Counted from the stretch's first letter, positions 7,458-57,104 are shown. The stretch: DNA of 58,196 nt from an uncultured Dehalococcoidales bacterium (GCA_964473905.1 CAYYQY010000004.1:1-58196); one strand, 5' to 3'. Numbers and translations: made by a program. The notes: a model not told the origin generated them from the sequence alone.

Positions 7458-7486
7458 TTGACAGTTGGTCATGGTTATGCTATAAT
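7458..7486 (+). promoter_or_regulatory. Sigma70-type promoter of the aro leader/operon
   Basis: Perfect TTGACA-N17-TATAAT. Confidence 0.85.
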
Positions 7487-7500
7487 TATTCCCTAGTAAT

Positions 7501-7560
7501 ATGGAAATGTACAAAAACTCTCAGGGCTATTATTATTACGCGTTTACGTGGCGCATATAG
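7501..7560 (+). CDS. Attenuator leader peptide MEMYKNSQGYYYYAFTWRI
   Basis: 19 codons, 7 of them aromatic (Y x5, F, W), between the promoter and a terminator preceding aroF. Confidence 0.8.
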   Translation: MEMYKNSQGYYYYAFTWRI

Positions 7561-7627
7561 TGCGTCAGGGAGGGTTTTACAAAATAATTATAACGATATA
7601 GATTTCAGCCAAGAATAAGTAATTTAA

Positions 7628-7660
7628 AAAGAACCTCCCCGGCGGGAGGTTCTTTATTAT
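7628..7660 (+). terminator. Attenuator terminator of the aro operon
   Basis: AAAGAACCTCCC-cggc-GGGAGGTTCTTT 12-bp stem with U/A-rich tail; competing antiterminator strand CGTCAGGGAGG at 7563-7573. Confidence 0.8.
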
Positions 7661-16753: not shown

Positions 16754-18415
16754 ATGGCTGAAGCTTCGGTACGCAAGAAGAAAGAACTGCAGGAATTCAT
16801 TGACAAGGGACTCTGGGAAGACCTGACATGGGCAGCGCTGTGGGACAGGAATGCCAAAGAATACCCCGATAGAGAAGCCATGGTCGATTACCGGTCAAGA
16901 TGGACCTGGGCACAGGCTAAACTGGCGATAGACAGGTTAGCCCTGGGTCTGATGGATATGGGCTATAAGAAAGATGACGCTATCGTTGTTGAGCTACCCA
17001 GCTGGTCCGAGTGCATGATAGCCAGAATCGCCTGCGATAAAGCAGGTCTCATTGTAGCCCCCGTGTTAAGGAGTTTCCGTGAAACCGAGATGTTGCATAC
17101 ACTGGCCATTCTTGAGGCCAAGGGTGTAGTCATACCGTATAAGTGGGGCGGTTTTGATTACGTTAACATGATCCAGTCGCTGCGCCCCGACCTGCCCAAG
17201 CTGGAGCATATCTTTATTGTCGGTGACGAGGTTCCCGAGGGATGCATTTCCCTGAACAAGATGCTGGAGGAACCCCTGGAGAAGAAGTACTCTCCGGAGG
17301 AACTGGAAGCACTCTTTGCTAAAACAGTAATGCCCAGCACCGAGGTATCCGAACTCTCGCATACCACCGGCAGTACCGGTCTTCCCAAGCTCGCCGAATG
17401 GCCGGCTGTGCTTGGGTTGGCCCGCACTAAGGACACGGTAAATAAATTCGGGATTAACAAGGACGATGTTCTGGGCGCCCTATCCCCGGGCTGGGGCGGC
17501 ATGAACAACCCTACCTACCACGGTGGACCGTATGTCGGGGCAAAATTCGTCATGATGGAGCGCTGGGATATAGTCGAGGCTTTCAAGCTTATCGAGAAGG
17601 AGAAGATAACCTATTTCGCCATTACGCCAACCATGATGCGCATGATGATGGACCATGCCGATTTCGGTAAATATGATCTGAGCTCTCTCCGGGCTATCAT
17701 GGTATCAGGAGCGCCGTGCCCTCCCGGCTGGCCGCGAGAAGCCGAGGAAAAATTTGGTGCCAGGGTCATCAACACCTACGGTTCGAGAGACCTGGGCAGC
17801 ACAGCGTCGCCTTCATATACAGACCCGCCCGAAACCCGATGGGCAACCGCTGGCAAACCGAACAGCTGGGACGAGATTCATCTGCTCGACGAGGCAGGCA
17901 ATGATGTGCCGGAAGGAGAAGTCGGTGAGGTAGCCGTAAGAGCCGTGACCGGTTCCGGTGGTTACTTTAAGAACCCGGAAGCCAATGCGAGTTCCGCTAC
18001 TCCGGACGGTTTGTTCCGCATTGGTGACCTGGCCAGATTTGATGAAAACGGCAACCTGGTTATTGCCGGGCGCGCCAAGAATATAATTATCCGCGGCGGC
18101 GAGAATATTTATCCTACGGAGATAGAGGGTATGCTCGGTACCCACCCGAACGTAGTCCAGGCAGCCGTAGTCAAGATGCCCGACCCGCTCTTTGGTGAAA
18201 AAGCATGCGCCTATGTCGCTCTTAAACCGGGAGGCACTTTTGCCTTTGACGAAATGGTCTCTTTCCTGAAATCAAAGAAGCTCGCTGCCTTCAAACTGCC
18301 GGAAAGATTGGAAATTGTGGACAAGATACCCATGGTAGGCGACGGCACGAAGGTAGATTTGAAAAGTCTGGAAAAAGACATAGCCGGTAAACTCAAAGCC
18401 GAAGGAAAGGTATAG
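16754..18415 (+). CDS. AMP-forming acid-CoA ligase (aryl/cyclohexanecarboxylate-CoA ligase-like)
   Basis: HTTGSTGLPK, TYGS, GDLARFD, GRAKNIIIRGGENIYP and FKLPERL motifs. Confidence 0.9.
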   Translation: MAEASVRKKKELQEFIDKGLWEDLTWAALWDRNAKEYPDREAMVDYRSRWTWAQAKLAIDRLALGLMDMGYKKDDAIVVELPSWSECMIARIACDKAGLIVAPVLRSFRETEMLHTLAILEAKGVVIPYKWGGFDYVNMIQSLRPDLPKLEHIFIVGDEVPEGCISLNKMLEEPLEKKYSPEELEALFAKTVMPSTEVSELSHTTGSTGLPKLAEWPAVLGLARTKDTVNKFGINKDDVLGALSPGWGGMNNPTYHGGPYVGAKFVMMERWDIVEAFKLIEKEKITYFAITPTMMRMMMDHADFGKYDLSSLRAIMVSGAPCPPGWPREAEEKFGARVINTYGSRDLGSTASPSYTDPPETRWATAGKPNSWDEIHLLDEAGNDVPEGEVGEVAVRAVTGSGGYFKNPEANASSATPDGLFRIGDLARFDENGNLVIAGRAKNIIIRGGENIYPTEIEGMLGTHPNVVQAAVVKMPDPLFGEKACAYVALKPGGTFAFDEMVSFLKSKKLAAFKLPERLEIVDKIPMVGDGTKVDLKSLEKDIAGKLKAEGKV

Positions 18416-18427
18416 AAAAAGATACAA

Positions 18428-18511
18428 AGGAGGCGGTCCATATGTAATTTGCGCACACATCTGGGGTTCATGAGTATATTTTGACTGCAAAATATACTGT
18501 TTGCGTCAAAA
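18428..18511 (+). promoter_or_regulatory. SD + start-stop element and overlapping inverted repeats
   Basis: AGGAGG-N8-ATG-TAA at 18428-18447; AGTATATTTTG/CAAAATATACT at 18473-98; alternative TTTTGAC-GCAAA/TTTGC-GTCAAAA at 18479-18511. Confidence 0.4.
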
Positions 18512-18555
18512 TGCTTAAAAAATATAGTCCAATTGCCCAAATCGAGGAGGTTATA

Positions 18556-20235
18556 ATGGCAATAGAACCCAGGGAAGATTATAGTTACTACGAGTTTTCT
18601 GAGGATGATGTAGACGATACCTGGTGGGTCTGGGATATGGGGCATACCCCACCCACCGCACCGTGGTCACCGATGTTTGTCCAGTGGTGGATGTACGGTG
18701 CTACCGTGCCCCTGGCCAAAGCACTGGAAGATGCGGCCACACCAAGATCCAAGGGCCCTCGCAGCCGGTCAAACCGCGGCTACCACATGGTGACAGTCGC
18801 CGTGCCTCACAACGAAGAGGAGATACAGGAACGCAGCGAGAGGTACCGGCAAGCGGTTCTGCCCTGGCTTCAGGATACAGACAAGATACTGAACGAAATT
18901 AAAGCCGAGCTATCGGGAGTATACGAGAAGTACAAGAACTATAACTACGCCACAGCCAGCTGGAGCGAACTGATAGAATGGGTCCATGACTGGGAGCTAT
19001 TCAACTACCGTCACTGGTACCTGCACTTCTGGGCAATGGTATCCACCGGCGCTATCTTTGTTGACTGGGAGAACCTGAGCTACGAGCTACTGGGAATGGA
19101 CGCTCATCATCCCACGTTCCAGAGACTGATGAGAGGCTTTGACAACACCAACTTCGAGACCGAGAGACAGCTTCACGCGATAGCGCAGAAGGTCACTGAC
19201 GCGGGGCTAAAGGACATGGTAGTCAGCAGCAGTCCCGGAGAAATAATGGGTAAGCTGCTGGGCAGTGAAGCCGGCAAGCGCGTGCTCGCCGATTTTAACA
19301 AGTTCCTGGACAAGTATGGCTGGCGTAACTTCATGATGGACACCTACATGACACCCAGCTGGAGAGAGGACACATCACCGGCATGGCAGCGTATCCAGCA
19401 GTTTGTTAACCACCCCACCTTCAAACTGGATGAGATTATAGTTAAGCAAGCCGCGGAAAGAAAACTGGCAGAAGAAGAAATAGTAAACGCGCTGCCGGTT
19501 GACCAGAGAGAATGGTACCGCATACTTATGAAAGCAGGACAGGTAGCCAGTGTCTGGGCAGAAGACCACAGCTTCTTCTTTGAGATGCAGTCGCACTCAA
19601 TAGGCCGCTACTTCTGGCTGGAAGTGGGTAAGAGGCTCGTCGCCACCGGCGCTATTGAGCAACCTGATGACATCTTCATGCTGGTACCGCAGGAAGTATC
19701 CATATTGCTTTCCGACCCCTACAAGTGCAAAGCCAAGAAGAAGGCAAAAGCCCGCAGAGCCGAGTGGGACGCTGCCAAATCCTTCTTCCCCGAACCGTAC
19801 TATGGCAGAATTCCTCAGCCCGATGCCATGATGGAGATGATGGCCTCACAGGATGTCATCTTCACCAAGGTAACCCAGGAGAAACCGCCCGAGCCCAGAC
19901 CGGAACTCAAGGCTGACCTCATTGGCGTATCCGGCTCACCGGGTATCGCCGAGGGCATCGCCCGCGTCATAATGTCACCGGCCCAGATGGGCGAAGTACA
20001 GGAAGGCGAAATACTGGTAGCCCCCATCACAGACTCAACCTGGACTCCTGTCTTCAGTATAATCAAGGGAGTAGTGCTGAACACCGGCGCTCCGCTGTGC
20101 CACGCCGCTATTATTGCCCGCGAGTATGGCCTGGCCGCCGTGGTCAACACCGTTGAAGGCACTGACAAGATAAAGACAGGACAGCGAGTCAGGGTAGACG
20201 CTGACGTCGGCGCTGTTTACATACTGGATAAATAA
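18556..20235 (+). CDS. ppsA: Phenylphosphate synthase alpha-like subunit (PEP-utilising mobile His domain + N-terminal helical domain)
   Basis: C-terminal GVSGSPG..EG and GAPLCHAAIIAREYG phospho-His motif; no ATP-grasp or pyruvate-binding barrel; GAGGAGG RBS before ATG 18556. The symbol refers to phenylphosphate synthase, not PEP synthase. Confidence 0.8.
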   Translation: MAIEPREDYSYYEFSEDDVDDTWWVWDMGHTPPTAPWSPMFVQWWMYGATVPLAKALEDAATPRSKGPRSRSNRGYHMVTVAVPHNEEEIQERSERYRQAVLPWLQDTDKILNEIKAELSGVYEKYKNYNYATASWSELIEWVHDWELFNYRHWYLHFWAMVSTGAIFVDWENLSYELLGMDAHHPTFQRLMRGFDNTNFETERQLHAIAQKVTDAGLKDMVVSSSPGEIMGKLLGSEAGKRVLADFNKFLDKYGWRNFMMDTYMTPSWREDTSPAWQRIQQFVNHPTFKLDEIIVKQAAERKLAEEEIVNALPVDQREWYRILMKAGQVASVWAEDHSFFFEMQSHSIGRYFWLEVGKRLVATGAIEQPDDIFMLVPQEVSILLSDPYKCKAKKKAKARRAEWDAAKSFFPEPYYGRIPQPDAMMEMMASQDVIFTKVTQEKPPEPRPELKADLIGVSGSPGIAEGIARVIMSPAQMGEVQEGEILVAPITDSTWTPVFSIIKGVVLNTGAPLCHAAIIAREYGLAAVVNTVEGTDKIKTGQRVRVDADVGAVYILDK

Positions 20236-20315
20236 AGTCGGGTAAAAGCGATAAGTACCATGCCGGTTGCGGCAGCGATATTGGTGCCGGGTATGGCTGG
20301 CTAATTGCTAACGAA

Positions 20316-20351
20316 GGGTAGCCCTTTGTATTTGGGTGCAAAGGGCTACCC
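20316..20351 (+). promoter_or_regulatory. Intercistronic stem-loop
   Basis: GGGTAGCCCTTTG/CAAAGGGCTACCC 13-bp perfect stem with no U-tract. Confidence 0.6.
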
Positions 20352-20377
20352 GGAAAGACCTGGGGGAGAGATAGAAA

Positions 20378-21823
20378 ATGGCATTTAAGGATTTGAGAGA
20401 TTACATTTCAGCACTGGAGCAACACGGACAATTAAAAAGAGTTGACAGGGAAGTCGATTGGAACATTGAAGCAGGGGCTATTTCCCGACTGGTTTATGAA
20501 AAAGGCCTGCCTTCTCCCCTCTTTGAAAATGTTACCGGTTATCCCGGATATAGACTTTTTGGTGCGCCAATCAGCACCTTTTCCAAACTTGCCATCGCTC
20601 TGGGGCTGGACCCGGAGACCAGCATTAAAGAATTAATTAATTTCTATCTGGAGAAAAAAAAGGATCTTGTTAAGCCAGTCTTCGTGGATAAAAGCCAGGC
20701 ACCCTGCAAGGAAAATATTGACATAGGTGACCAGGTTGACCTTATGAAATTCCCGTCACCCATGTTGCACGAGGGTGATGGCGGCAGGTATTTATGCACG
20801 TGGCATATTAACGTCTCCAAGGACCCCGATACGGGCTGGATAAACTGGGGTTGCTACCGGGCTATGGTGTCCGGCAAGAACACACTGACCGGCCCGGTGA
20901 GTCCGGCAAAACACATGGGTTCTCAATATCAAAAATACAAAGCGAAAAATATCCCGATGCCATTTGCCATTGCCATAGGTCCTGAACCCGTAAGCGGTTT
21001 TATAGCCGGAGCCAGGGTAGCCGCCAACCTTTACGAAGCCGAACTGGTCGGTGCGCTGAGGCAGGAACCGATAGAACTGGTCAAATGTGAAACCGTAGAT
21101 TTAGAGGTGCCGGCAGGTTCTGAAATCGTAATTGAGGGCGAGATATCCCTGACTGAGAAAGACTGGGAGGGACCTTTCGGCGAGTTTGTCGGTTACAGCG
21201 CTACAGGAAGAAACAAAGCGCCGGTATGGAACGTAAAAGCGATCACCTACCGTAACAACCCGATAATAACCATGTCCAACACCGGAGTGCCCGTGGATGA
21301 ATACCACCTTGACGTAGGTCTGGTCAGGTCGGCAGAGCTGTATAACAGGCTGCGTGCCGATGGTATCCCGGTGGTAGCCGTAAACGCACCGCCGGAGGGT
21401 GTTGGCTTCCTGGTTATCGTCAGCGTATCCGGTAACACACCGAATATCGCGGAGAAGGTTACTTCCAGTATCTGGAGTTCTCCCCAGGGATCAAACGCCC
21501 CCTTCGTTTTTGTGGTAAACGATGACGTGGACGTCTTTAATATATGGGAGGTCATGCATGCTATGGTCACCAAGTGCCATCCCTACCGTGATATCTGGAG
21601 AGTGGAGCGGGCCTCGGCCATACCGTTTATGACCTTTCTAAATGCCTACGAGAGGCAACACCGCCTAGGGGCCAAGGTCTACTTCGATTGTACCTGGCCT
21701 ACTGACTGGGACCCTGTATCAGAAATTCCGCCGAAGATATCCTTTGACGCTAATTACTCCCATGAAGTGAAAGAGCACGTCCTCAAAAACTGGGAGAACT
21801 ATGGCTTTATCAGGCTAGCCTAA
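20378..21823 (+). CDS. UbiD-family (de)carboxylase, phenylphosphate carboxylase-like large subunit
   Basis: DGGRY, NWGCYR, EGPFGEFVGY and GVPVDE. C-terminal FDCTWPTDW...NWENYGF resembles the Ppc clade as recalled. Confidence 0.88.
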   Translation: MAFKDLRDYISALEQHGQLKRVDREVDWNIEAGAISRLVYEKGLPSPLFENVTGYPGYRLFGAPISTFSKLAIALGLDPETSIKELINFYLEKKKDLVKPVFVDKSQAPCKENIDIGDQVDLMKFPSPMLHEGDGGRYLCTWHINVSKDPDTGWINWGCYRAMVSGKNTLTGPVSPAKHMGSQYQKYKAKNIPMPFAIAIGPEPVSGFIAGARVAANLYEAELVGALRQEPIELVKCETVDLEVPAGSEIVIEGEISLTEKDWEGPFGEFVGYSATGRNKAPVWNVKAITYRNNPIITMSNTGVPVDEYHLDVGLVRSAELYNRLRADGIPVVAVNAPPEGVGFLVIVSVSGNTPNIAEKVTSSIWSSPQGSNAPFVFVVNDDVDVFNIWEVMHAMVTKCHPYRDIWRVERASAIPFMTFLNAYERQHRLGAKVYFDCTWPTDWDPVSEIPPKISFDANYSHEVKEHVLKNWENYGFIRLA

Positions 21824-21837
21824 GGAGGCCGTTTAAG

Positions 21838-22077
21838 ATGTTTAGAGAAGGCTATGAGATTTATACGAGCAAGCTGGGACAGCTTGAGCAGGGTAAGGAA
21901 TTACAATTAGAAATCAGGGACGTCAAGACCTACCAGCCCAAGAAGGTCAAGGCAACAATATCCTCCTCCCCGGAAAAGCTGCCTGACGGTGAGTTACTAT
22001 GGGTAAGGGGCATGCTGGGCCCGTTACTTGACGGGAAACCGTGGCGGATTAAAATAATAAGCCAGGTCCAGTCTTAA
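21838..22077 (+). CDS. Phenylphosphate carboxylase gamma subunit-like protein
   Basis: 79 aa with pattern EQGKELQLEIRD...KVKATISS..EKLPD..LWVR..G......WRIKII, matching the small Phenyl_P_gamma family as recalled; directly follows the UbiD gene. Confidence 0.75.
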   Translation: MFREGYEIYTSKLGQLEQGKELQLEIRDVKTYQPKKVKATISSSPEKLPDGELLWVRGMLGPLLDGKPWRIKIISQVQS

Positions 22078-22149
22078 GCCCGGAGCGACTTCATAACGGG
22101 GAGGGGAATATTAGCTCAAGAGTGGAGATATTTATGGAGGTAATATACG

Positions 22150-23181
22150 ATGACAGAATCTAAATTGGTTTACTGGTTTGACGAGGTAGATTCCAGTTCT
22201 AACGAACTTGTGGGGAAGAAAGGGGCAAACCTGGGCGAGATGACTAAATTGGGTATGCCCATAGTCCCGGGATACGTGGTCTCGATTGAGTCATTCCGCA
22301 GGTTTATGACCGAGACAGGAGTCGGCGACAAGATTGCCAAATATGGGGACAGCCTTGGAAAACTCACTAACGTAGACCAGGGTGAAGAAGCCGGCAGGAC
22401 TATTCGCTCATGGATAATGGAAACAGAAGCACCGGACTACCTGAAGGAAGAAATAGGCTCGTACTACGATGCCCTCTGCGAAAAGACAGGCATACCGGAT
22501 GTCCGCGTATCAACAAGGTCAGGAGGGCCAACCAGCCGTCCGGGTATGTTTGATACCTACTTGAATGTCAGCGGCCGGGAAAATGTCATCCAGCATGTAA
22601 AGAAAGTATGGGCCAGTGTTTATACCGGGCGCGCCATCTGGTATCGCCAGGCTCATGATGTTCCCTTTGCATCTGATGTGCTCGGCGTTGTCGTGATGAA
22701 GCTGGTGGATGCCCGCTCCGCGGGTATTATCTTCACTGCCGACCCGGTAACGGGTGACAGGTCACGAATTATCGTTGATTCCAGCTGGGGCATGGGTGAG
22801 GGAGTCGTTGGTGCCCGGGTTGAAGTAGACCGGTTTATAGTGGACAAAGAGACCCTGAACGTGGTGGACAAGGTTATCGGTAAGAAAGTAATGCGCATCG
22901 CCTGCGGCGAGCATCTCATTGAAGAAAGAGCCGTGCCCCCTGAACTGCAAGAGATTCCCTGCTTATCCGATGAAGAGCTAAGAGAAGTAGCCAGGATTGC
23001 CAGATCGATGGAGGTAACGCTGGGCGAACCCCAGGACATGGAATGGGCACTGGACGGCGAAATAGCCTTCCCCAAGAATGTATTTTTCTTCCAGACCCGA
23101 CCGGAGAAATTTGCTACCAATAAAGAGACAACCGCCATCGACCGTCTGGCAGATATTATGGCAAAAAGGGCGACCCGATAA
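22150..23181 (+). CDS. ppsB: Phenylphosphate synthase beta-like subunit (PEP-synthase N-terminal ATP-binding domain)
   Basis: VGKKGANLGEM, DTYLNV, SSWGMGEGVV, QDMEWA and FFQTRP; ends without His or barrel domains. Confidence 0.82.
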   Translation: MTESKLVYWFDEVDSSSNELVGKKGANLGEMTKLGMPIVPGYVVSIESFRRFMTETGVGDKIAKYGDSLGKLTNVDQGEEAGRTIRSWIMETEAPDYLKEEIGSYYDALCEKTGIPDVRVSTRSGGPTSRPGMFDTYLNVSGRENVIQHVKKVWASVYTGRAIWYRQAHDVPFASDVLGVVVMKLVDARSAGIIFTADPVTGDRSRIIVDSSWGMGEGVVGARVEVDRFIVDKETLNVVDKVIGKKVMRIACGEHLIEERAVPPELQEIPCLSDEELREVARIARSMEVTLGEPQDMEWALDGEIAFPKNVFFFQTRPEKFATNKETTAIDRLADIMAKRATR

Positions 23182-23221
23182 ATCTTTCCTGAAGAGCAAT
23201 TTACCAGTAAGTTTACAGCCG

Positions 23222-23271
23222 GTACCCACTTAAGTTAACTTAACTTAACTAAGGTAAGCTTGAGTGGGTAC
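23222..23271 (+). repeat. Long inverted repeat enclosing a TTAAC triplet repeat
   Basis: GTACCCACTTAAG/CTTGAGTGGGTAC arms; TTAAC x3 at 23235-49. Confidence 0.6.
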
Positions 23272-23360
23272 TTGTTGTGTCACAAATTAGCTTTAAACCG
23301 GCATGACTACGCATGATACGGAACACGCTTATTGCAGGCACTAGAGAGAAGGAGTTTTAG

Positions 23361-24599
23361 ATGAGTGATAATATAGTAATTCTGGTAATGGCTGAGGAGA
23401 AATGGGAGGAGGCCGATTTCCTACGTAGTCATATTGAATCCCGGGGTTTTCAAACCCAGATCCTGGATATAGGCCTAGTTCTGGAACCCGATGGCCCCTG
23501 TGATATTACCCGCGAAGAGATAATAGCTCTCAGCGGCAGAGACCCGGCAGAGGTCGCCCAGCTTTACCGCGGCAAACGAATGCCGGTTATGGTAGCCGGA
23601 GCTATCAAGAAAGTGGGTGAGCTTTATGCCCAGGGAAAGATACAGGGCATAATCAGCATCGGTGGCACTACGGGTACTCAGATGGCAACCCAGATAATGC
23701 GGTCACTGCCCTTTGGTTTCCCCAAGTTTGGCGTCTCGGCGACAATATCGCTGCTCGGCTTCGCTTCCAGCGCTTTCGGTACCGGCGACATAACCATGAT
23801 GAACTCGGTAGTAGATTTTACCGGCGCTAAAAGCATAATGATGCGGAACGTGCTGGCACGAGCGGCCGGGGCTATCTGCGGTATGATAGAAGGCAGCGCC
23901 AAGGTGCCCATTACACTGCCGGGTAAAGATGAAAAACCGCTGGTAGCTATAACACAAATCGGGCTGGTAGAGATAGTAGCCTCAACTGTTAGAAAGATGC
24001 TTGAGGAGAAAGGATACCAGGTAGTTGCTTTCTCCGCCTCCGGTGTATGCGACCGGGCTATGGAGAAGATAATTGAGACCAATAACCTGTTCGGTGCCGT
24101 AATTGATATTACTCCAGCCGGAGTAGGTGAAGAGCTTTTCAACTTTGGCATGAAGTCAGGCCCCACCCGCCTTGAAGCCGCCGGTGAGGCAGGTATCCCG
24201 CAAATAATATCAATGGGCAAAGTAAATATAGGCTGCCCGATAAGCAGAAACTATGCGAAACACCCCGAGTACCGCGAGCGCAAGAAGTATGAATACGATG
24301 CAGCACGGACTTTTATACGCCTTACTGAGGACGAGCTTGTACAGGTAGCGGATGCGATGGCGGATAAGCTCAATAAAGCCAAAGGACCGGTTACAGTGAT
24401 TATACCGACGGGCGGCTGGTCTGCGGTTGATAAGAAAGGCACCGACTTCTATGATGGCGAACTGGACAGGGTGTTCGCCAGTGAGTTTAAGAAGAAGCTG
24501 AAACCGGAGATAGAGGTTATAGAAGCAGAGGGTGACCTTGATACCGCCGAGTTTGCTCAACACATCGTGACGGCATTTGAGAATATTATGGCCAAGTGA
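23361..24599 (+). CDS. Tm-1-like ATP-binding domain protein (UPF0261)
   Basis: GIISIGGTTGT, MRSLPFGFPK, DITMMNSVVD, EAAGEAGIPQ and FIRLTEDE; 412 aa. Confidence 0.85.
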   Translation: MSDNIVILVMAEEKWEEADFLRSHIESRGFQTQILDIGLVLEPDGPCDITREEIIALSGRDPAEVAQLYRGKRMPVMVAGAIKKVGELYAQGKIQGIISIGGTTGTQMATQIMRSLPFGFPKFGVSATISLLGFASSAFGTGDITMMNSVVDFTGAKSIMMRNVLARAAGAICGMIEGSAKVPITLPGKDEKPLVAITQIGLVEIVASTVRKMLEEKGYQVVAFSASGVCDRAMEKIIETNNLFGAVIDITPAGVGEELFNFGMKSGPTRLEAAGEAGIPQIISMGKVNIGCPISRNYAKHPEYRERKKYEYDAARTFIRLTEDELVQVADAMADKLNKAKGPVTVIIPTGGWSAVDKKGTDFYDGELDRVFASEFKKKLKPEIEVIEAEGDLDTAEFAQHIVTAFENIMAK

Positions 24600-48870: not shown

Positions 48871-49473
48871 TTGAAAAAGAAATGGCACTATCTGGTCGGC
48901 GCCGGCGTGTGTCTAACCCTGGTTCTATCGGGGATGCTGGCTATGGCACTAATCGGGACTTTAGCAGGAACACCGGTCCTGCCAGCTAACCCGGCGCAGG
49001 CTGCCGGCTCTATTACAACCGACCGAGGGGCCGCCGATATGGGAGACCCGCTAGCAGGATATACCTTCTTGCTGGAGATTGAGGGTAAAACAGCCGGTTA
49101 CTTCACGGAATGCAGCGGCCTTGGTTCCGAGAACTGGGTTATCGAACAGAAAATGACTGATGAAGACGGGAACGCAATCTACTGCAAGATACCGGGACGG
49201 TTAAAATGGTCCAATATTATCCTCAAACGGGGCATCACTGCCAATATGGATATGTGGGACTGGAGGCAGGAGGTAACAGACGGCGAGATGGAGGCTGCGC
49301 GGACAAATGGCTCTATTATTATGCTGGACAGGAATATGGAACCCGTAGCGCAGTGGGACTTTGAAGACGGCTGGCCCTGCCGGATAGCCGGAGCCTATGT
49401 GGCAGCCGACTTAAACGAGAGCGTTATCGAGGAGATAGAAATAGCCCACGAGGGGCTGACACGCGTTGAATAG
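48871..49473 (+). CDS. T4 gp19/eCIS-type tail tube protein with N-terminal signal peptide-like extension
   Basis: DPL..Y.FLLEI, FTECSGL, KIPGRLKWSNIILKRG, WDWR, R.NGSI.MLD, W.F..GWP and IEEIEIAHE. Preceded by MKKKW, a ~20-residue hydrophobic stretch and PAQA/A. Confidence 0.88.
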   Translation: MKKKWHYLVGAGVCLTLVLSGMLAMALIGTLAGTPVLPANPAQAAGSITTDRGAADMGDPLAGYTFLLEIEGKTAGYFTECSGLGSENWVIEQKMTDEDGNAIYCKIPGRLKWSNIILKRGITANMDMWDWRQEVTDGEMEAARTNGSIIMLDRNMEPVAQWDFEDGWPCRIAGAYVAADLNESVIEEIEIAHEGLTRVE

Positions 49474-49504: not shown

Positions 49505-49533
49505 TTGACAATTTAAATATATTATGTTAGAAT
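49505..49533 (+). promoter_or_regulatory. Sigma70-type promoter of the acyl-CoA ligase/LIV operon
   Basis: TTGACA-N17-TAGAAT with extended -10 TG. Confidence 0.75.
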
Positions 49534-49564
49534 TCTCTATCTTCGTTCATAGTAAACTATTATA

Positions 49565-49657
49565 ATGAAGCACCTGATTAAGAGTACGGAGCAACGCAAT
49601 TTCATCTTTATCAAGCGCACCGGAGTGCGCTTGAGGAGGTTAGATACTGGTAAATAA
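49565..49657 (+). CDS. Candidate attenuator leader peptide MKHLIKSTEQRNFIFIKRTGVRLRRLDTGK
   Basis: 30-codon ORF; the FIFI codons (49601-12) abut hairpin TCAAGCGCAC/GTGCGCTTGA (49611-34). Confidence 0.55.
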   Translation: MKHLIKSTEQRNFIFIKRTGVRLRRLDTGK

Positions 49658-49698
49658 TCGGGTTATTAGCGAAAAATAAGCGATTAGTTCTTGGATTG

Positions 49699-49728
49699 AA
49701 GTGCCTCCCGGGCGGGAGGTGCTTTTTT
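49699..49728 (+). terminator. Attenuator terminator ahead of the acyl-CoA ligase/LIV operon
   Basis: AAGTGCCTCCC-gggc-GGGAGGTGCTT followed by a T run; lies between the promoter and the first gene. Confidence 0.8.
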
Positions 49729-49771: not shown

Positions 49772-51664
49772 ATGGATAATCTGGATACGATACCTAAACT
49801 GGTTACGGGTAACCGTGAGAAATGGGGCGAGCGCCCGGCCATGTGTATGAAACGGATGGGTATATGGCAGCGCTACAGCTGGCAGGAATACTACGATACC
49901 GTCAAGTATTTCTCCCTGGGTCTGATTAGTCTGGGACTCAAACCGGGAGACGTGGTCTGCATTATCGGCGACAACGAGCCGGAGTGGTTCTGGGGAGCCT
50001 TTGCCACACAGGCTGCCGGAGGCATTGTCACCGGTATTTTCGTTGACTCCATCCCCTCCGAGGTAAAATACATCGCCGAGCACTCGGGCGCCAGGTTCGC
50101 CGTCGTCAACGACCAGGAGCAGACAGATAAGTTCCTGGAGATCAAGGACGAACTGCCGGTACTGGTAAAGGTCATCTACTGGGATCCCAAAGGGCTGAAA
50201 AACTATGACGACCCGCTCATAACCAGCTTTATAGATGTAGTAGAGCTGGGTAAAGAGTACGGTAAGACACATGAGGGTCTATTTGAAGAGAATGTAGGTA
50301 ACGGCAGGGAAGACGATATTGCCTTTATCTACTATACCTCGGGAACCACCGGCTTGCCCAAGGGAGCACTGCTTACCCACCGCGCGCTGGTAAATACGGC
50401 GCGGGGTTTCGTTGTCCGCTATCCGCTGAGCGAAAACGACGACCTGATGTCCAATTTCCCGGCGGCGTGGGTAGGCGACAGCTTTTTTGCCACCATTCCT
50501 CACCTGCTTACCGGCGCCAGATTAAACTTCCCCGAAGAACCGGAGACCATAGCCGAAGATACGCGCGAGGTTGGCCCCAACTTCGTCATCTACGGCCCGC
50601 GGCAGTGGGAGGAGGTAGTCAGCACTATCCAGGTAAAGATGATTGATGCCCACCCCCTAAAACGCCTGGCCTATAAACTCTTCCTGCCGGTAGGCAGAAA
50701 AATAGCCGATATGAGCTTCGCCGGGCAGAGACCGAATATCTTCTGGCGGGCTCTGCATACCATCGCCCATCTCCTCCTGTTCCGGCCCTTAAAAGACCAA
50801 CTGGGTCTCAACAATGTGAGATTCGCCGTTACCGGCAGCTCCGTTCTCAGCCTGGACACCTTTCAGTTAATACACGCTATCGGCATTGAGCTGAGACAGA
50901 ACTACGCCGGTACCGAAGCCGGTTTCATATCTTCCCACGGCAAAGGGGAGATTAGATTTGAAAGCGTGGGGCGGCCAGCTGTAGGCGTCAGCGTTAGAAT
51001 AACCGACAGAGGAGAGCTCCTCGTCAAAAGCGACTGCATGTTTACCGGCTACTTCAAAGATGATATTAAGACAGAGGCCGCATTAAAAGACGGCTGGTGC
51101 CAAACCGGGGACGCCGTCCACATTAATGAGGATGGTCATTTAATCTTCCTAGACCGCCTGGAACATATGAGAGAGCTCAGCTCGGGCACCAAATATGCTC
51201 CCCAGTATATAGAAGGCAGACTCCGTTTCAGCCCTTACATAAAAGATGCCATGGTCATCGGCGATAAAGATAAGGGATTTGTCTCGGCGCTAATCAACAT
51301 AGATTTTACCATGGTGGGTAAATGGGCGGAAAGCAACAGTATCCCCTACACCACTTTTGTTGATTTATCCCAGAAACAGGAGGTCGCCGACCTGGTGCGC
51401 AAGGACCTGCTGCGGGTAAACGGCTACCTGCCCGAAGCCGCCCGGGTAAAAAAATTCGCCCTGCTGCATAAGGAATTTGACCCGGACGAGGCCGAGCTTA
51501 CCCGCACCCGGAAGCTGCGACGGGATTTCATGGAGGAACGTTATAAATACTTGATTGATGGCATGTACCAAGACGACCAGAAGATAACGGTAAATGCGCC
51601 GGTAACCTATAGAGACGGTAGAAAAGGCACGGTCAGCACCGATATCGAGGTAAGGAGTATCTGA
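49772..51664 (+). CDS. Long-chain acyl-CoA synthetase (FadD-like, ABC-associated type)
   Basis: YTSGTTGLPKG, NYAGTE, TGDAV, PQYIEGRLRFSPYI and ELTRTRKLRR motifs. Confidence 0.92.
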   Translation: MDNLDTIPKLVTGNREKWGERPAMCMKRMGIWQRYSWQEYYDTVKYFSLGLISLGLKPGDVVCIIGDNEPEWFWGAFATQAAGGIVTGIFVDSIPSEVKYIAEHSGARFAVVNDQEQTDKFLEIKDELPVLVKVIYWDPKGLKNYDDPLITSFIDVVELGKEYGKTHEGLFEENVGNGREDDIAFIYYTSGTTGLPKGALLTHRALVNTARGFVVRYPLSENDDLMSNFPAAWVGDSFFATIPHLLTGARLNFPEEPETIAEDTREVGPNFVIYGPRQWEEVVSTIQVKMIDAHPLKRLAYKLFLPVGRKIADMSFAGQRPNIFWRALHTIAHLLLFRPLKDQLGLNNVRFAVTGSSVLSLDTFQLIHAIGIELRQNYAGTEAGFISSHGKGEIRFESVGRPAVGVSVRITDRGELLVKSDCMFTGYFKDDIKTEAALKDGWCQTGDAVHINEDGHLIFLDRLEHMRELSSGTKYAPQYIEGRLRFSPYIKDAMVIGDKDKGFVSALINIDFTMVGKWAESNSIPYTTFVDLSQKQEVADLVRKDLLRVNGYLPEAARVKKFALLHKEFDPDEAELTRTRKLRRDFMEERYKYLIDGMYQDDQKITVNAPVTYRDGRKGTVSTDIEVRSI

Positions 51665-51682: not shown

Positions 51683-52588
51683 TTGGCTGATTTCACTCAA
51701 ATGCTTCTACAGTACGCCATCATCGGCATCACCGTGGGCATGGTCTATGCCCTTATTGCCCTGGGTTTTGCCCTGATATGGAAATCCAGCGGTGTCGCTA
51801 ATCTGGCACTGGGACAGATAGTGCTGTTTTCCTCGTGGTTTACCTACGGCATGCTGGTCCAGGCCGGGCTTCCCTTATGGCTGGGTTTCTTCCTGGTACT
51901 GCTGTTTACCCTTGCCTTGGGCTGGTCTATTGAAAGGTTCGCCCTGCGCCCGCTCATCGCTCAGCCGGCGCTCACCCTTATCGCCGTTACGCTGGGCGTG
52001 GGCTACTTCATAGAAGGCGTGGTCAGTTTCATCTGGCCATGGAGCGTGGACGCGCTGCCGCGCCTCTTCCCCAAAGAGCCTATCCACATTGGCGGTGCCG
52101 TGGTCTCACAGGAATATATATGGGTAGTTATCGTATCGCTAATCCTGTTCGGTCTTTTATCCCTATTTTTCAGGTACCACAAGATGGGAATTGCCATGAG
52201 AGCCACCGCCGATGACCAGCTGGCGGTACAGGCCTGCGGCATCCCGGTGACCAGCATCTTCTCCACATCGTGGATGTTCGCCTGTGTAGTGGCTGCTATC
52301 GGCGGTATCCTGATATCAAGCATCAGCGGCATTACCTACGGCCTGGTTGAGACCGGGTTCAAGGCGTTTTCCGTGGTAATACTCGGCGGGCTGAACTCCT
52401 TCCTGGGCTGTATGGTGGCCGGCCCGATAATAGGGCTCTCCGAAAGCCTGGGCAGCGGTCTTCTTTATCACTTTTTCCCGTCTCTCTGGCCCGGAATCAA
52501 GGATATTATCCCGTACATTATCATCATCATTGTTATGATTTTTAAACCGTTCGGTCTGTTCGGTGAAGTACGCATAGAGAGGATATAG
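51683..52588 (+). CDS. livH: Branched-chain amino acid-type ABC permease (LivH-like)
   Basis: YALIALGF, MGIAMRATADD and VVILGGLNS motifs. Confidence 0.9.
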   Translation: MADFTQMLLQYAIIGITVGMVYALIALGFALIWKSSGVANLALGQIVLFSSWFTYGMLVQAGLPLWLGFFLVLLFTLALGWSIERFALRPLIAQPALTLIAVTLGVGYFIEGVVSFIWPWSVDALPRLFPKEPIHIGGAVVSQEYIWVVIVSLILFGLLSLFFRYHKMGIAMRATADDQLAVQACGIPVTSIFSTSWMFACVVAAIGGILISSISGITYGLVETGFKAFSVVILGGLNSFLGCMVAGPIIGLSESLGSGLLYHFFPSLWPGIKDIIPYIIIIIVMIFKPFGLFGEVRIERI

Positions 52589-52592
52589 TAGA

Positions 52593-53645
52593 TTGGGCTT
52601 ACCCTGTGGAACACGTAATTATACCTACGCCGAAGACATGGCCATTGTGCGGACAAAAACGCAATGGGTAATGCTGTTTGCTTTCCTGGCTTTGCTTTTT
52701 ACCACGCCGCTGTACCTTGGCAGCTACTGGTTGGGCGTCGTCAACCTAATTGGTATTACCTTAATCGCCGCCACCGGCCTGAATATCCTGATGGGCTACT
52801 GCGGGCAGCTATCTATCGGGCATGTCGGCTTTATTGCCGTTGGCGCTTACACCTCAGCCATCCTGACTAACCGCCTGGAGCTTCCTTTTATCGTAGGGCT
52901 AATCTGTGCCGGGCTTACTGCCGGGCTAATCGGCCTTATCTTTGGGATTCCTTCCATGCGTGTTAAGGGCTTCTACCTGGCTATTACCTCCATTGCCGCC
53001 CAGCTCATAATTATCTGGGTTATCAACCACTGGTCGGTAAGCGGCGGCTTCATGGGCATCAAGGTGCCCTACGCCGCTATCGGCAGTTTCGTCTTCGATA
53101 GTGAGGCCAGCCAGTTTTATCTGATAATGGGTATCACCGTCATCTGTATTTTATTCGCAAAAAACCTGGCCAGAACCAGGGTAGGCAGGGCATTTATTGC
53201 TATCAGGGATAACGACCTAGCCGCCGAGGTTATGGGTATTAACCTCTTCCGCTATAAGCTGCTCGCCTTCTTTATCGGCTGCTTCCTCGCTGGTATATCC
53301 GGTTCACTAATGGCCCATTGGGTCGGCTTCATGAATGCCGAATATTTCAGCATATCCGAGTCCATTCTTTATGTGGGCATGCTAGTCATCGGCGGCCTGG
53401 GGACAACGCTCGGCCCGATTCTGGGCGTAGTTTTTATACGCCTGCTACAGCAGATACTGACCGTAGAAATCGTGCCGCTACTGGAGGGAACGTTACCCTC
53501 ACTGCCCGCTGGATTCGCGACAGGCTTAATCCCGATGCTATTCGGTCTGGTAATCATCCTGTTTCTGATACTGGAACCGAGAGGGCTCGCCCATCGCTGG
53601 ATGCTATCAAAAGCCGCTTACCGTCTCTGGCCATTTTCATATTAG
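52593..53645 (+). CDS. livM: Branched-chain amino acid-type ABC permease (LivM-like)
   Basis: GYCGQLSIGH, GFYLAI, GRAFIAIRDN, IGGLG and EPRGL motifs. Confidence 0.9.
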   Translation: MGLPCGTRNYTYAEDMAIVRTKTQWVMLFAFLALLFTTPLYLGSYWLGVVNLIGITLIAATGLNILMGYCGQLSIGHVGFIAVGAYTSAILTNRLELPFIVGLICAGLTAGLIGLIFGIPSMRVKGFYLAITSIAAQLIIIWVINHWSVSGGFMGIKVPYAAIGSFVFDSEASQFYLIMGITVICILFAKNLARTRVGRAFIAIRDNDLAAEVMGINLFRYKLLAFFIGCFLAGISGSLMAHWVGFMNAEYFSISESILYVGMLVIGGLGTTLGPILGVVFIRLLQQILTVEIVPLLEGTLPSLPAGFATGLIPMLFGLVIILFLILEPRGLAHRWMLSKAAYRLWPFSY

Positions 53646-53706
53646 GCAGGTAAATATTTACTATCGGCTCTTACCAATGAACATAAAAAATACTGAGGAG
53701 GGACAA

Positions 53707-54978
53707 ATGAAAAACAGAAAACCTGTAGTGGTGACCTGTCTGGTCTTTATGGCACTGCTGCTGGTCGTACTGCCGGTCTTAAGCAGTTGTGGTCCCGCGG
53801 CAGAACCGGTAAAGGTACTGAAGGTAGGTATTACCACACCTTCAACCGGGCCAGCCGCGGAAAAAGGGAGACCGCTCGCTCACGGCAACCTTGATGCCAT
53901 TGAGTACATCAACAACGAGCTTGGGGGTGTCAACGGCTACCCCATTGAGGCGGTCTGGCTGGATAACGGCTATGACGCGGCCAAGGTAGTCACCAACGTT
54001 AAGAAGTTTCAGGACGAGGGCTGTTTGATGTTCACCACCGTCTCATCCAAGATGATGAGTGCAGCCATGGAACTGGCCAACCGGAACGAGTTACCCGGCC
54101 TAGCCTGCTTCACTTCCCCGATACTCTACCGACCGCCTGAGCATATATACGGGCAGATGCCGGATTACGGAGACGATGCCCTGGCCTTCGCCAATTATTA
54201 TCTGGAGAATATCTGGGAAGGAGAGGGTAAACCCAGATTTGCTCTGCACCTGCTCAACAACTCTACCGGTTCGGGAGCGCGGGATGCCTACCGCGCCAAG
54301 GCCGAAGAGCTGGGTATCGAGATTGTGGCTATTGAGGAGCACACCACAACTACCACCTCCGAGATGGAATCCTTGGTTAGAATAAGGGAACAAAACCCGG
54401 ACGTTCTGTTCATCTCCAGCACACCGGCACCCACCGCCCTTATCATCAAGAATGCCTACGAAATGGACATGTACCCCGGCATTACCATCGGCTGTGCCCA
54501 TGCCGGCTTTACCAAAGTCCTGATTGATATCGCCGGTGCTGACGTTGTTGAAGGAGTTTACGGGACCTTCCCTACCGTATTATGGGGAGAAGACGTGCCC
54601 GGCATGGCCAAGGTTGTGGAATACTGCGAGAGACTGCACCCGGATGATGCCGGTAATATGGACTATATCATCGCCTGGGCGCAAAGCCTGATTATTGCCG
54701 AAATCCTGAGAACAGCCCTGGAGAGTGTAGACTACGAGACGCTCGCCAAAGGAGACCTTGCGGCACGGCAAGCCCTGGAGACTCAGGGTATTAAGAAACT
54801 TAAAGACTACGCAGTTGACGGGCTGCAGGGCCCGGTAAGCTATACTCCCGGAGATAACCGTCTTACCAAATACAACAGGATTTACCAGATAGCGGACGGT
54901 GAAATTACTAATCCGAGTCCCTGGGTCGAGGCACCGCTAATCAAGTACGAAGACTACGAATGGTTCGACGCAGGATAG
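53707..54978 (+). CDS. LIV-family ABC substrate-binding lipoprotein
   Basis: Lipobox VLSSC, TGPAA and INNELGGVNG...DNGYD; GAGGAGG RBS. Confidence 0.88.
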   Translation: MKNRKPVVVTCLVFMALLLVVLPVLSSCGPAAEPVKVLKVGITTPSTGPAAEKGRPLAHGNLDAIEYINNELGGVNGYPIEAVWLDNGYDAAKVVTNVKKFQDEGCLMFTTVSSKMMSAAMELANRNELPGLACFTSPILYRPPEHIYGQMPDYGDDALAFANYYLENIWEGEGKPRFALHLLNNSTGSGARDAYRAKAEELGIEIVAIEEHTTTTTSEMESLVRIREQNPDVLFISSTPAPTALIIKNAYEMDMYPGITIGCAHAGFTKVLIDIAGADVVEGVYGTFPTVLWGEDVPGMAKVVEYCERLHPDDAGNMDYIIAWAQSLIIAEILRTALESVDYETLAKGDLAARQALETQGIKKLKDYAVDGLQGPVSYTPGDNRLTKYNRIYQIADGEITNPSPWVEAPLIKYEDYEWFDAG

Positions 54979-55029: not shown

Positions 55030-55821
55030 ATGCTCAAGTTAAATAACATTGAGGTCACCTATCTCAATGTTATACGGGTACTCCACGGCGTTTCCGTTAA
55101 CGTGGAGGACGGCTCAATTGTCGCGCTGCTGGGAGCCAACGGTGCCGGTAAAAGCACCACCCTCAAGGCGATATCGGGGCTGCTCCATGTTGAGGAAGGC
55201 GAAGTAACCGACGGCAGTATCGAGTGGAACGGGGTCAGGATAGATAAAAAGAGGGCCGAGGAAATCGGTAAACTGGGTATTATCCAGGCACTGGAGGGAA
55301 GGCGCGTATTCGGTCACCTCAGCGCCGAGGAGAACCTGCTGGTCGGAGCCTATCACCGCGGCGACCGCCGCAGTGTCAGAAAAGAGCTGGACATGGTTTA
55401 CCGCTACTTTCCGCGGCTAAAGGAACTCAGGCATAATACCGGAGGCTACCTTTCCGGAGGCGAGCAGCAGATGCTCGTCATCGGCCGGGCTATGATGTCC
55501 AACCCCAAGCTCATGCTGCTGGACGAGCCGTCACTGGGTCTCGCCCCCAAGCTGGTTGAAGAGATTTACCGGATTATCCAGCTTTTTAATACCGATTATA
55601 AGACATCAATTTTTCTCGTGGAGCAGAACGTCAGGATTGCCCTGAGCATCGCCAGTTACGGTTACGTCATGGAAAACGGGCGTGTCGTCCTTGACGGCAG
55701 TGCCGATTTCCTTAAAAATAACGAGGACGTGAAGGAATTTTACATGGGCCTATCGGCTGTGGGCACCAAGAAGAGCTACCGGCAGGTGAAACACTACAGG
55801 AGGCGCAAGCGATGGCTATAG
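55030..55821 (+). CDS. livF: LIV-type ABC ATPase (LivF-like)
   Basis: GANGAGKS, LSGGEQQML, DEPSLGLAP and VEQN motifs. Confidence 0.93.
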   Translation: MLKLNNIEVTYLNVIRVLHGVSVNVEDGSIVALLGANGAGKSTTLKAISGLLHVEEGEVTDGSIEWNGVRIDKKRAEEIGKLGIIQALEGRRVFGHLSAEENLLVGAYHRGDRRSVRKELDMVYRYFPRLKELRHNTGGYLSGGEQQMLVIGRAMMSNPKLMLLDEPSLGLAPKLVEEIYRIIQLFNTDYKTSIFLVEQNVRIALSIASYGYVMENGRVVLDGSADFLKNNEDVKEFYMGLSAVGTKKSYRQVKHYRRRKRWL

Positions 55822-57104
55822 TTTCAGAAGATAGACAGGACGAGTATTTTGATGAAAAGGAGACCATGTCTCACCAGGTACGGGGCAGATACCTGGCCCG
55901 GAGACTTGCTGAAGCTATTGACCATGCCTACCGGCATGCCCCCACCGTTAAAGAAAAAATGGATAAAGCCGGTGTCAGCCCGGCCGAAATCCGCAGTATA
56001 AAAGACCTGGAAAAACTGCCCGTAACCAGCAAGGTTGAACTCATAGAGCTACAGAAAACAAGACCCCCCTACGGGGGTTTCCTGACCATTCCCCCGAAAG
56101 ACGTGGAGCGGATATTTGTATCACCAGGCCCTATCTACGAACCACTCCATAGCGCCTACATCAAATGGTTTGCCAAACCGTTCTACGCGGCGGGCTTCAG
56201 AAAAGGGGATATCGTCATCAACACCTTTACCTACCACCTGTCTCCAGCCGGAATGCTGTTTCACGAGGCGATAAGGGATTGTGGCGCTACCGTTGTCGTT
56301 GCCGGTACCGGCAGTACCGAAAACCAGCTGCAAATCATGCGCGATATGAAAGTGACGGGATTCGTCGGAACGCCCAGCTTCCTGATGACCACTATAAAGA
56401 AAGCGGAGGAAATGGGGCACGATTTCAAGCGCGACTATCACCTGAAACGCGCCTGGTTTACCGGCGAGATGCTCCCGGCTTCGCTGCGTAATATATTTGA
56501 AGAGGATTACCAGATTGCCACCTCGCAAGCCTATGCTGTTACCGAACTGGGCGGGGCCATTGCCTACGAGTGCCGCCAGAAAGAGGGCATGCACTTCATG
56601 GATGAATACATAGTGGAAATAGTTGACCCGGAAACGGGCAAACAGCTTGGGCCCGGAGAGATAGGCGAGATAGTGGTGACACCCGTCCACAACAGGGCAT
56701 GGGGGCTCGTCCGCTTTGGCACCGGTGATATGTCCTCCTACACCAATGAACCATGCCCCTGCGGCCGGACTGCCAGCCGGCTGGTCAGTATCGTCGGCAG
56801 GACTGGTGACGCGGTCAAGGTAAGGGGTATGTTCGTTATTGCCCGGCAGGCGGAACAGGTTATCCTCGGTTTTGAGGCGGTTAACCAATTCCAGATAGTC
56901 GTCCGGCGTCCTGCCCAGCGGGACGAGATGACCGCAAATATTGAGCTTAAAGATGAAAGCGCCGACCGCGATAAGCTCGCCAGCGACCTGAATAAAAGCT
57001 TCCAGAGCCTGTGCCGGGTCAAGTTTGACCGGATTGAATTCGTGGAGAAGGGTTCTATCCCAGATCAAAGACAGGTAATTTTAGACGAGAGATCCTGGGC
57101 GTAG
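55812..57104 (+). CDS. Phenylacetate-CoA ligase family protein (PaaK-like)
   Basis: FVSPGPIY, GFVGTPSF, TGEM, FGTGD and GRTGDAVKVRGM motifs. Confidence 0.88.
   Translation: MAIVSEDRQDEYFDEKETMSHQVRGRYLARRLAEAIDHAYRHAPTVKEKMDKAGVSPAEIRSIKDLEKLPVTSKVELIELQKTRPPYGGFLTIPPKDVERIFVSPGPIYEPLHSAYIKWFAKPFYAAGFRKGDIVINTFTYHLSPAGMLFHEAIRDCGATVVVAGTGSTENQLQIMRDMKVTGFVGTPSFLMTTIKKAEEMGHDFKRDYHLKRAWFTGEMLPASLRNIFEEDYQIATSQAYAVTELGGAIAYECRQKEGMHFMDEYIVEIVDPETGKQLGPGEIGEIVVTPVHNRAWGLVRFGTGDMSSYTNEPCPCGRTASRLVSIVGRTGDAVKVRGMFVIARQAEQVILGFEAVNQFQIVVRRPAQRDEMTANIELKDESADRDKLASDLNKSFQSLCRVKFDRIEFVEKGSIPDQRQVILDERSWA

Follow-up and report, generated by a model that had tools for sequence, protein, structure and literature searches.

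Which signal controls the six-gene operon downstream of positions 49505–49728 in a 58,196-nucleotide (nt) stretch of DNA from an uncultured Dehalococcoidales bacterium (GCA_964473905.1, CAYYQY010000004.1:1-58196), and by which mechanism? The operon in this stretch, referred to here as the window, encodes an acyl-coenzyme A (CoA) ligase, a LIV-type ATP-binding cassette (ABC) transporter, and a PaaK-like ligase, and a first-pass annotation described the element at 49505–49728 as an attenuator that responds to phenylalanine (Phe) and isoleucine (Ile). Our analysis indicates that this element probably acts by classical ribosome-mediated attenuation of transcription, in which translation of a leader peptide senses charged tRNA-Phe. 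In silico, this reading is supported by the individual elements and their conservation, by helices that exclude one another, by the reading frame, and by the correspondence between codon content and operon. Judging from comparative sequence analysis, the element belongs to a real, order-wide, and apparently undescribed family of a textbook mechanism.

Helices, reading frame, and distribution of the leader cassette

The promoter, the leader open reading frame (ORF), and helices 1:2, 2:3, and 3:4 with the T run were located correctly to the base by the first-pass annotation (Table 1); a small correction outside the element places the ATG of the ligase gene at 49772. Transcription would start at approximately 49540, about 7 nt past the −10 box, and the 5′ untranslated region (UTR) of approximately 24 nt is A/U-rich and lacks a Shine–Dalgarno (SD) sequence. 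Helix 1:2 consists of TCAAGCGCAC, the loop CGGA, and GTGCGCTTGA (49611–49634). Helix 2:3 pairs CGCTTG(A)GGAGG (49628–49639) with CCTCCCGGGCG (49704–49714) over 11 bp and leaves A34 as a bulge; in the antiterminator, strand 2 thus has the 5′ arm and loop of the terminator (49703–49714) as its partner. The terminator stem in the window comprises 9–12 bp (12 pairs in the terminator listing) plus T6.

In the proposed mechanism, a ribosome would translate the 30-codon leader. When Phe-tRNA is ample, the ribosome would pass TTC-ATC-TTT and hairpin 1 and halt at the TAA (49655). Strand 2 would re-pair with strand 1 behind the ribosome, or would be partly covered by it, and the CCUCCC/GGGAGG terminator would form, such that RNA polymerase would stop at the T run, whose end lies 44 nt upstream of the ligase ATG. 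When Phe-tRNA is scarce, the ribosome would stall with a Phe codon in the A site and mask strand 1 (49607–49620). TTT overlaps or abuts strand 1 in the leaders, and a ribosome with TTT in the A site would cover the RNA to approximately 49621, assuming a footprint of about 12–14 nt 3′ of the A site. The free strand 2 (GUGCGCUUGAGGAGG) could then pair with the emerging 5′ arm and loop of the terminator, and with the terminator blocked, the ligase-LivH-LivM-solute-binding protein-ATPase-PaaK operon would be transcribed. If translation were absent, helices 1:2 and 3:4 would both form and lead to termination. The mechanism presumes translation from an ATG without an SD sequence, ribosome stalling, coupling between translation and RNA polymerase, and a response to Phe.

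Folding of the complete leader yields −61.6 kcal/mol (z = −3.6), and none of 200 shuffled sequences was as stable. An RNA that is masked to 49621 and extends no further than the terminator loop adopts the 2:3 antiterminator as its minimum-energy fold, at −25 kcal/mol. We collected 100 distinct leader copies, of which 77 are of the ligase type, and the terminator hairpin is present in every one of the 100. Masking of strand 1 results in 6 or more 2:3 base pairs in 99 of 100 leaders, and the mean energy of the 2:3 duplex is −20.8 kcal/mol compared with −12.1 kcal/mol for shuffled strand 2. In an alignment of 16 diverse leaders, 88% of the pair cells of the 12-bp antiterminator are paired, versus 40–58% when the partner is slid by one to three columns, and four antiterminator pairs show compensatory changes. 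The RNAalifold consensus of 16 diverse leaders contains hairpin 1 and the terminator, with compensatory changes at eight pairs, some of them in the outer terminator stem. The linker measures 45–73 nt in nearly all homologues.

The frame opened by the leader ATG runs to the FxF motif in 98 of the 100 copies, whereas the two alternative frames do so in 11 and 6. In 40 of the 77 ligase-type leaders, the closest ATG lies exactly 12 codons upstream of the motif, which is the most frequent spacing, and the N-terminal residues otherwise show no conservation across copies. A promoter matching at least 9 of 12 positions was found upstream of the ATG in 92 of 97 homologous leaders; the median distance from the −10 box to the ATG is 31.5 nt, leaving short, A/U-rich UTRs. 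Past the hairpin loop, the encoded peptide depends on the length of the loop (GVRLGG, RGARGR, or a stop codon within the loop), although the nucleotides are kept, which indicates that the 5′ part of the leader is conserved as a reading frame and the 3′ part as RNA. The stop codon lies 8–35 nt past the hairpin in 91 copies, in the hairpin loop in eight, and in the 5′ arm in one, and never inside or beyond the terminator. All three frames are closed ahead of the terminator in 70 of 89 leaders, compared with 52% in shuffles.

A covariance model (R1, from alignment A1) representing the 64-nt core of the cassette matched 247 of 363 Dehalococcoidales genomes (about two thirds), mostly once per genome, including 97 of the 131 high-quality genomes of this order. 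No match was obtained in 375 genomes that belong to the other orders of the class. We also scanned one genome for each of 185,579 species (596 Gb) with an exact 18-nt pattern. The full cassette was recovered only from records titled Dehalococcoidales, Dehalococcoidaceae, Dehalococcoidia, Dehalogenimonas, or Chloroflexota, plus one "uncultured Chloroflexia bacterium"; the matches in other taxa were bare 18-nt matches missing the rest of the architecture, with approximately 87 expected by chance. Many Collinsella genomes carry the 18-nt pattern in identical form, apparently inside a conserved coding region that is unrelated to the attenuator. Cassette carriers include a complete genome of 1,469,720 bp, and the same leader is present upstream of ligase orthologues (70–79% identical) in other families of Dehalococcoidales. 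Close relatives of the ligase retrieved by protein homology search came from Chloroflexota only, at 77% identity or above, and the one Desulfosalsimonadaceae homologue examined (45% identical) is encoded mid-operon without a leader.

The first-pass annotation had proposed a comparative alignment of leaders as a check, and the leader proves to be conserved both in frame and among genomes, as given above. Its central claim, an attenuator of a ligase/LIV-type ABC/PaaK operon, is likewise supported by conservation across the order, which extends to the leader ORF, to all three alternative helices and the terminator, and to the operon of six genes. This conservation also bears on a simpler explanation, in which the terminator merely ends the upstream tail-tube gene (48871–49473) or serves as an insulator of the operon, with a hairpin and a mini-ORF that arose by chance. 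The terminator does sit in the intergenic gap after that gene. However, a strong promoter lies between the gene and the leader, and the whole cassette accompanies the ligase operon despite different upstream neighbours, by which the explanation is effectively refuted.

Putative sensing codons and sister cassettes

The two Phe codons are constant in the ligase-type leaders, as TTC and TTT each occur in 77 of 77. At the fourth position, 72 of the 77 have Thr (ACC), and the ATC of the window is the sole Ile, whereas the second, middle position varies (V in 36, I in 28, T in 9, M in 2, S in 1, and L in 1). The T-x-R-T positions that follow are dictated by the nucleotides of strand 1, and the residue x varies (G, R, K, E, or V). 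From this alignment, the "Phe-Ile-Phe-Ile" read in the window is best regarded as a local accident of a family motif F-x-F-T-x-R-T. The Phe part of the sensing proposed in the first-pass annotation is therefore supported, and the Ile part is not. In Dehalococcoides-like genomes, the leader of the same operon contains Tyr and Phe (MKYAGYTYFYFMFTGRT), with the pattern M-K/R-Y-x-G-Y-x-Y-F-Y-F-M-F-T.

Sensing of a branched-chain amino acid in addition to Phe, as put forward in the first-pass annotation, might still be considered, with a stall at the Ile or Val codon between the two Phe codons, and at the second Ile of the window, also opening the switch, and with the operon responding to Ile/Val starvation by importing branched acids. 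In favour of this reading, 64 of the 77 ligase-type leaders have V or I in the middle, and the transporter is of the LIV (HAAT) type. However, the other 13 have T, M, S, or L there, the fourth position is mostly Thr rather than Ile as described above, and a single codon gives weak leverage. The RYC preference at the middle codon can be explained by pairing of this codon in the extended helix with GGRGG, and the sister cassettes described below all accompany aromatic amino-acid genes. We therefore consider dual sensing unlikely.

A sister attenuator precedes the aro operon of the window, which extends from DAHP synthase (7715–8800) through chorismate synthase (end at 14145), and its leader reads YYYYAFTW. 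BLAST and regular-expression searches for a second copy of the cassette in the same genome found none; the 3′ arm of the aro sister is TGCGT, so neither R1 nor the regular expression matched it, BLAST missed it as well, and it was found by reading the sequence. Weaker R1 matches in the same genomes are cassette copies located before other genes and have different leaders. Leader segments preceding DAHP synthase read WYYYYFIFTW, VYYTYFAFSW, and FYYTYFTFTW, those preceding class I/II aminotransferases VYYAFIFT and NYYTYFMFT, and those preceding CoA-transferase III LYYTNFIFS and LFFANFIFT. Within the 13-codon stretch that ends at the FxFT motif, the leaders of ligase operons contain on average 2.3 F, 0.4 Y, and 0.05 W codons, DAHP-synthase leaders contain 2.3 F, 3.0 Y, and 1.0 W codons, and the aminotransferase and CoA-transferase leaders are Y/F-rich.

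The aro sister, like the homologous copies that precede genes for DAHP synthase, aminotransferase, and CoA-transferase, shares with the ligase type the same GCGCA hairpin, GGGRGG, a linker of approximately 60 nt, and the CCUCCC...GGGAGG terminator. The aro sister type differs from the ligase type in having Tyr and Trp besides Phe, 14 rather than 12 codons to the motif, and biosynthetic targets. These sister cassettes are probably paralogous copies. Codon content follows the regulated pathway on a fixed RNA switch, which points to ribosome-mediated attenuation and is not predicted by a riboswitch or a protein-binding site.

Several observations weigh against tRNA-Phe-responsive attenuation. An SD-like site is present at only 23 of 98 leader ATGs and is missing from that of the window, so the caveat of a missing SD raised in the first-pass annotation stands. 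In the minimum-energy fold of the window, a weak A/U-rich 5′ hairpin (49541–49570) pairs CUUCGUU with AAUGAAG and hides the leader AUG. The sensing codons comprise two Phe codons only, and these are not adjacent. Once strand 4 is added, the terminator beats the antiterminator at equilibrium (−33.3 versus −25 kcal/mol), such that the switch must be kinetic, as in classical cases. A large subgroup of homologues has a longer terminator stem, GATTACCTCCC...GGGAGGTAATT, together with an interruption of the U tract (CAATTTAT); the efficiency or mechanism of termination may differ in this subgroup. Look-alike attenuators of actinobacterial ilvB and leuA can also fail codon-mutation tests (PMC1262725). 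Finally, the GCGCA/UGCGC hairpin core shows no variation, with 5 of 10 pairs invariant in 15 sequences, and this core as well as TTC and TTT are invariant even at synonymous sites. Such invariance indicates selection on the RNA sequence itself, as would also be expected of a protein- or ligand-binding site, and is partly explained by UUU/GGRGG pairing and by three-way pairing constraints. UUU plus the preceding base pairs with GGRGG and lengthens helix 1:2 in about two thirds of folds, including that of the window, and the U residues of UUU are able to pair with A or G of GGRGG.

The invariant core and the fixed synonymous sites of the Phe codons would suit an RNA switch that binds a protein or a metabolite, in which the GCGCAC/GUGCGC hairpin with UUUACC and GGGRGG is recognized by an aromatic-amino-acid-responsive factor (TRAP- or PyrR-like) or acts as a riboswitch, the ORF being secondary. 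The identical hairpin is, moreover, common to all operons of the putative regulon. However, the hairpin is a single simple one without a multi-helix pocket, and such a switch leaves unexplained the frame-specific ATG (98 of 100 copies), the placement of the stop codon, and the operon-specific runs of aromatic codons. The whole window has no match in Rfam at gathering thresholds, and a permissive search of the leader region returned sub-threshold terminator matches only. A T-box, a PyrR site, and known riboswitches were rejected as candidates in the absence of any Rfam match (PyrR, 18.4 bits against a gathering score of 54), and we regard a binding switch of this kind as improbable. Membership in the Rfam family Phe_leader (RF01859) was also rejected, with 19.4 bits against a gathering score of 55 and the terminator alone aligning. 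The RNA-seq data of a Dehalococcoides-like genome, consisting of assembled contigs only, have flat depth and are uninformative on premature termination. For the organism of the window itself, the sequencing data consist solely of DNA metagenomes from a salt lake. No paper was found that joins Dehalococcoides, Dehalococcoidia, or Chloroflexi with an attenuator or leader peptide, and a prior prediction in Lopatovskaya et al. (2010; Mol Biol 44:128) is possible.

The leader ORF contains a further element, an internal SD-like GGAG. Among the 93 leaders located before genes other than DAHP synthase, 65 have an SD-like tetramer 13–10 nt ahead of the first Phe codon, and such tetramers scarcely occur elsewhere in the leader ORF. 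GGAG proper is present in 49 of 100 copies, and the count of 65 includes GGGG, AGGG, and similar tetramers. The element is kept as nucleotides and not as a Glu codon, since GAG never becomes GAA and the Glu-to-Gly change retains the G. A possible role is to hold the ribosome at the sensing codons or to delay it there. Two other roles were ruled out: GGAG is not the real SD of a shorter ORF, as there is no start codon 5–9 nt downstream, and the arrangement of SD-like element, spacer, and hairpin is not a programmed frameshift site, as there is no slippery heptamer.

A positioned GGAG that could hold the ribosome, together with the conserved F-[VIT]-F-T-x-R-T and the 12-codon N-terminal length in 40 of the 77 ligase-type leaders, is also compatible with nascent-peptide arrest of the TnaC or Erm-leader type, in which (L-E-x-x-K-)F-x-F-T-x-R-T would stall on strand 1 only with a small molecule (Phe, phenylacetate, or another) bound in the exit tunnel. 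The peptide itself argues otherwise: T-x-R-T is fixed by hairpin nucleotides with x variable, the "E" is kept as GGAG/GGGG nucleotides instead of an amino acid, and other N-terminal residues are unconserved. The sister leaders swap their upstream residues for operon-matched Tyr/Trp runs, which fits a codon sensor and not a tunnel sensor. Arrest of this type is likewise improbable, and sensing of charged tRNA-Phe through the two Phe codons remains our preferred reading.

The downstream operon and its predicted function

The genes downstream of the attenuator are listed in Table 1. Their six-gene order is syntenic in six other genomes, among them the complete genome mentioned above. Relatives of the gene 1 product are named long-chain acyl-CoA synthetase or AMP-binding protein in their sources. 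The nearest solved relatives of the gene 4 product are 4n03, 3ukj, 3tx6, and 4jb0 (E approximately 1e-10 to 1e-12), several of which we take to be aromatic-acid binders of Rhodopseudomonas. Gene 6 can be assigned to the PaaK family by full-length similarity to solved enzymes, and its substrate is a prediction. In Dehalococcoides-like genomes, the operon contains two tandem binding-protein genes.

Table 1. Features of the ligase-type attenuator, the operon downstream of it, and the sister attenuator (window coordinates).
Feature	Position	Strand	Description
Sigma-70 type promoter	49505–49533	+	TTGACA 49505–49510, 17-nt spacer with TG extension, TAGAAT 49528–49533; 11/12 consensus positions
Leader ORF	49565–49657	+	30 codons plus TAA (stop codon 49655–49657); encodes MKHLIKSTEQRNFIFIKRTGVRLRRLDTGK*
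Internal SD-like GGAG	49588–49591	+	9 nt 5′ of first Phe codon
Regulatory codons	49601–49609	+	TTC-ATC-TTT (Phe-x-Phe); FIFI codons span 49601–49612; next codon ATC (ACC, Thr, in family)
Strand 1	49607–49620	+	Core TCAAGCGCAC 49611–49620; region of second Phe codon extends helix onto GGAGG
Strand 2	49625–49639	+	GTGCGCTTGA (49625–49634) plus GGAGG (49635–49639); partner of strand 1 or strand 3
Linker	49640–49700	+	61 nt, A/T-rich; contains leader stop codon
Intrinsic terminator (strands 3 and 4)	49698–49728	+	GTGCCTCCC-GGGC-GGGAGGTGC (49701–49722), then T6 (49723–49728)
Gene 1, AMP-binding acyl-CoA ligase	49772–51664	+	630 aa; PF00501, PF23562
Genes 2 and 3, LivH-like and LivM-like permeases	51683–53645	+	PF02653 in each
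Gene 4, solute-binding protein (Peripla_BP_6)	53677–54978	+	Signal or lipobox-like N-terminus
Gene 5, ABC ATPase	55030–55821	+	PF00005
Gene 6, PaaK-like phenylacetate-CoA ligase	55812–57104	+	4r1l, E = 1.7e-48; 2y27, E = 1.1e-43
Sister attenuator of aro operon	7459–7660	+	Leader MEMYKNSQGYYYYAFTWRI*; TAG stop in hairpin loop

Paralogous ligase/LIV clusters (ligase 40–55% identical; e.g., G000:C37:3164-5044) have a LivG-like ATPase gene on the 5′ side and lack the leader, which suggests that only one paralogue per genome is under the predicted Phe control. The window also contains genes for de novo Phe synthesis, namely the aro operon, a fused chorismate mutase/prephenate dehydratase (pheA), and tyrA. 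The genome encodes an IOR alpha subunit above the family cut-off. Co-regulation of IOR with the operon was considered and rejected, since the iorA-like gene has its own promoter and no attenuator.

The presence of two CoA ligases, including a PaaK-like enzyme, argues for carboxylic-acid substrates, and the Phe-specific control argues that the product feeds or spares Phe. Most likely, then, the operon supplies Phe or spares Phe synthesis through import of an aromatic acid and its activation as a CoA ester, the functional part of which is conjecture. One possible and equally conjectural route leads from phenylacetate via phenylacetyl-CoA and phenylpyruvate to Phe, using IOR and an aminotransferase. 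Direct uptake of Phe by the operon is possible as well. With regard to the acid salvage put forward in the first-pass annotation, the branched-acid part is not upheld because the Ile codons are not conserved, and the aryl-acid part is plausible in light of the PaaK match and the IOR alpha subunit.

Elsewhere in the window, the region 16754–24599 encodes an AMP-binding ligase, a PEP-utilizer mobile-domain protein, a UbiD-family decarboxylase, a PPDK_N protein, and UPF0261, and resembles anaerobic aromatic metabolism of the phenylphosphate-synthase/carboxylase type. The gene immediately 5′ of the attenuator (48871–49473) encodes a T4 gp19-like tail-tube protein (PF06841, E = 5e-29) that is unrelated to the operon; this protein has a hydrophobic signal-like N-terminus, and no other injection-system genes were found nearby.

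A possible re-addressable cassette and its relation to known attenuators

Regulation in Dehalococcoidia, which include the bioremediation organisms Dehalococcoides and Dehalogenimonas, is poorly known, and their genetics is hard. A predicted cis-acting sensor of Phe, Tyr, or Trp in approximately two thirds of the order makes a regulon readable from sequence, and Phe limitation as the signal makes the substrate of the six-gene importer/CoA-ligase operon a testable question. The cassette represents a natural experiment in which one RNA switch is re-addressed by codon swaps, and it also bears a precisely positioned internal SD-like element.

We tentatively propose a more far-reaching interpretation, which is possible but rather doubtful as a whole. 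All copies would be versions of one modular cassette in which the hairpin (UUUACC-NGG-CGCAC) is fixed and is combined with a GGGRGG antiterminator, a CCUCCC terminator, and a GGAG anchor 9 nt ahead of the codons that do the sensing. Exchange of a few of these codons would suffice to redirect the cassette to Phe, Tyr, or Trp. The Phe-only version would mark the universally syntenic ligase-ABC-PaaK operon as a Phe-supply route, by which Dehalococcoidales, including organohalide-respiring Dehalococcoides, might take up aryl acids of the phenylacetate type released by their partners and convert them to Phe by reductive carboxylation as Phe-tRNA falls. The GGAG anchor would then be a new attenuator component that could tune the dwell of the ribosome at two hungry codons or recruit ribosomes to an SD-less leader.

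The predicted attenuator would extend classical leader-peptide attenuation to Chloroflexota and to an uptake and activation operon. Similar to pheL-pheA and pheM-pheST of Escherichia coli (Rfam Phe_leader, RF01859), it has a short ORF with Phe codons, helices 1:2, 2:3, and 3:4, a terminator before the first structural gene, and a presumed signal of tRNA-Phe charging. Different from these leaders, which contain a run of five to seven Phe codons and control pheA or pheST, it has a separated F-x-F and precedes an ABC importer with two CoA ligases; most of its leader ATGs lack an SD, the phylum is Chloroflexota, and there is no sequence or model similarity past the terminator. In E. coli trpL-trpEDCBA, as here, just two regulatory codons are located at or shortly before strand 1, the stop codon follows soon after strand 1, and helix 1:2 plausibly doubles as an RNA polymerase pause hairpin. 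Compared with trpL, the regulatory codons of the Dehalococcoidales leaders are non-adjacent, the stop codon lies in the hairpin loop or 8–35 nt past the hairpin, and a GGAG is positioned 9 nt 5′ of the codons.

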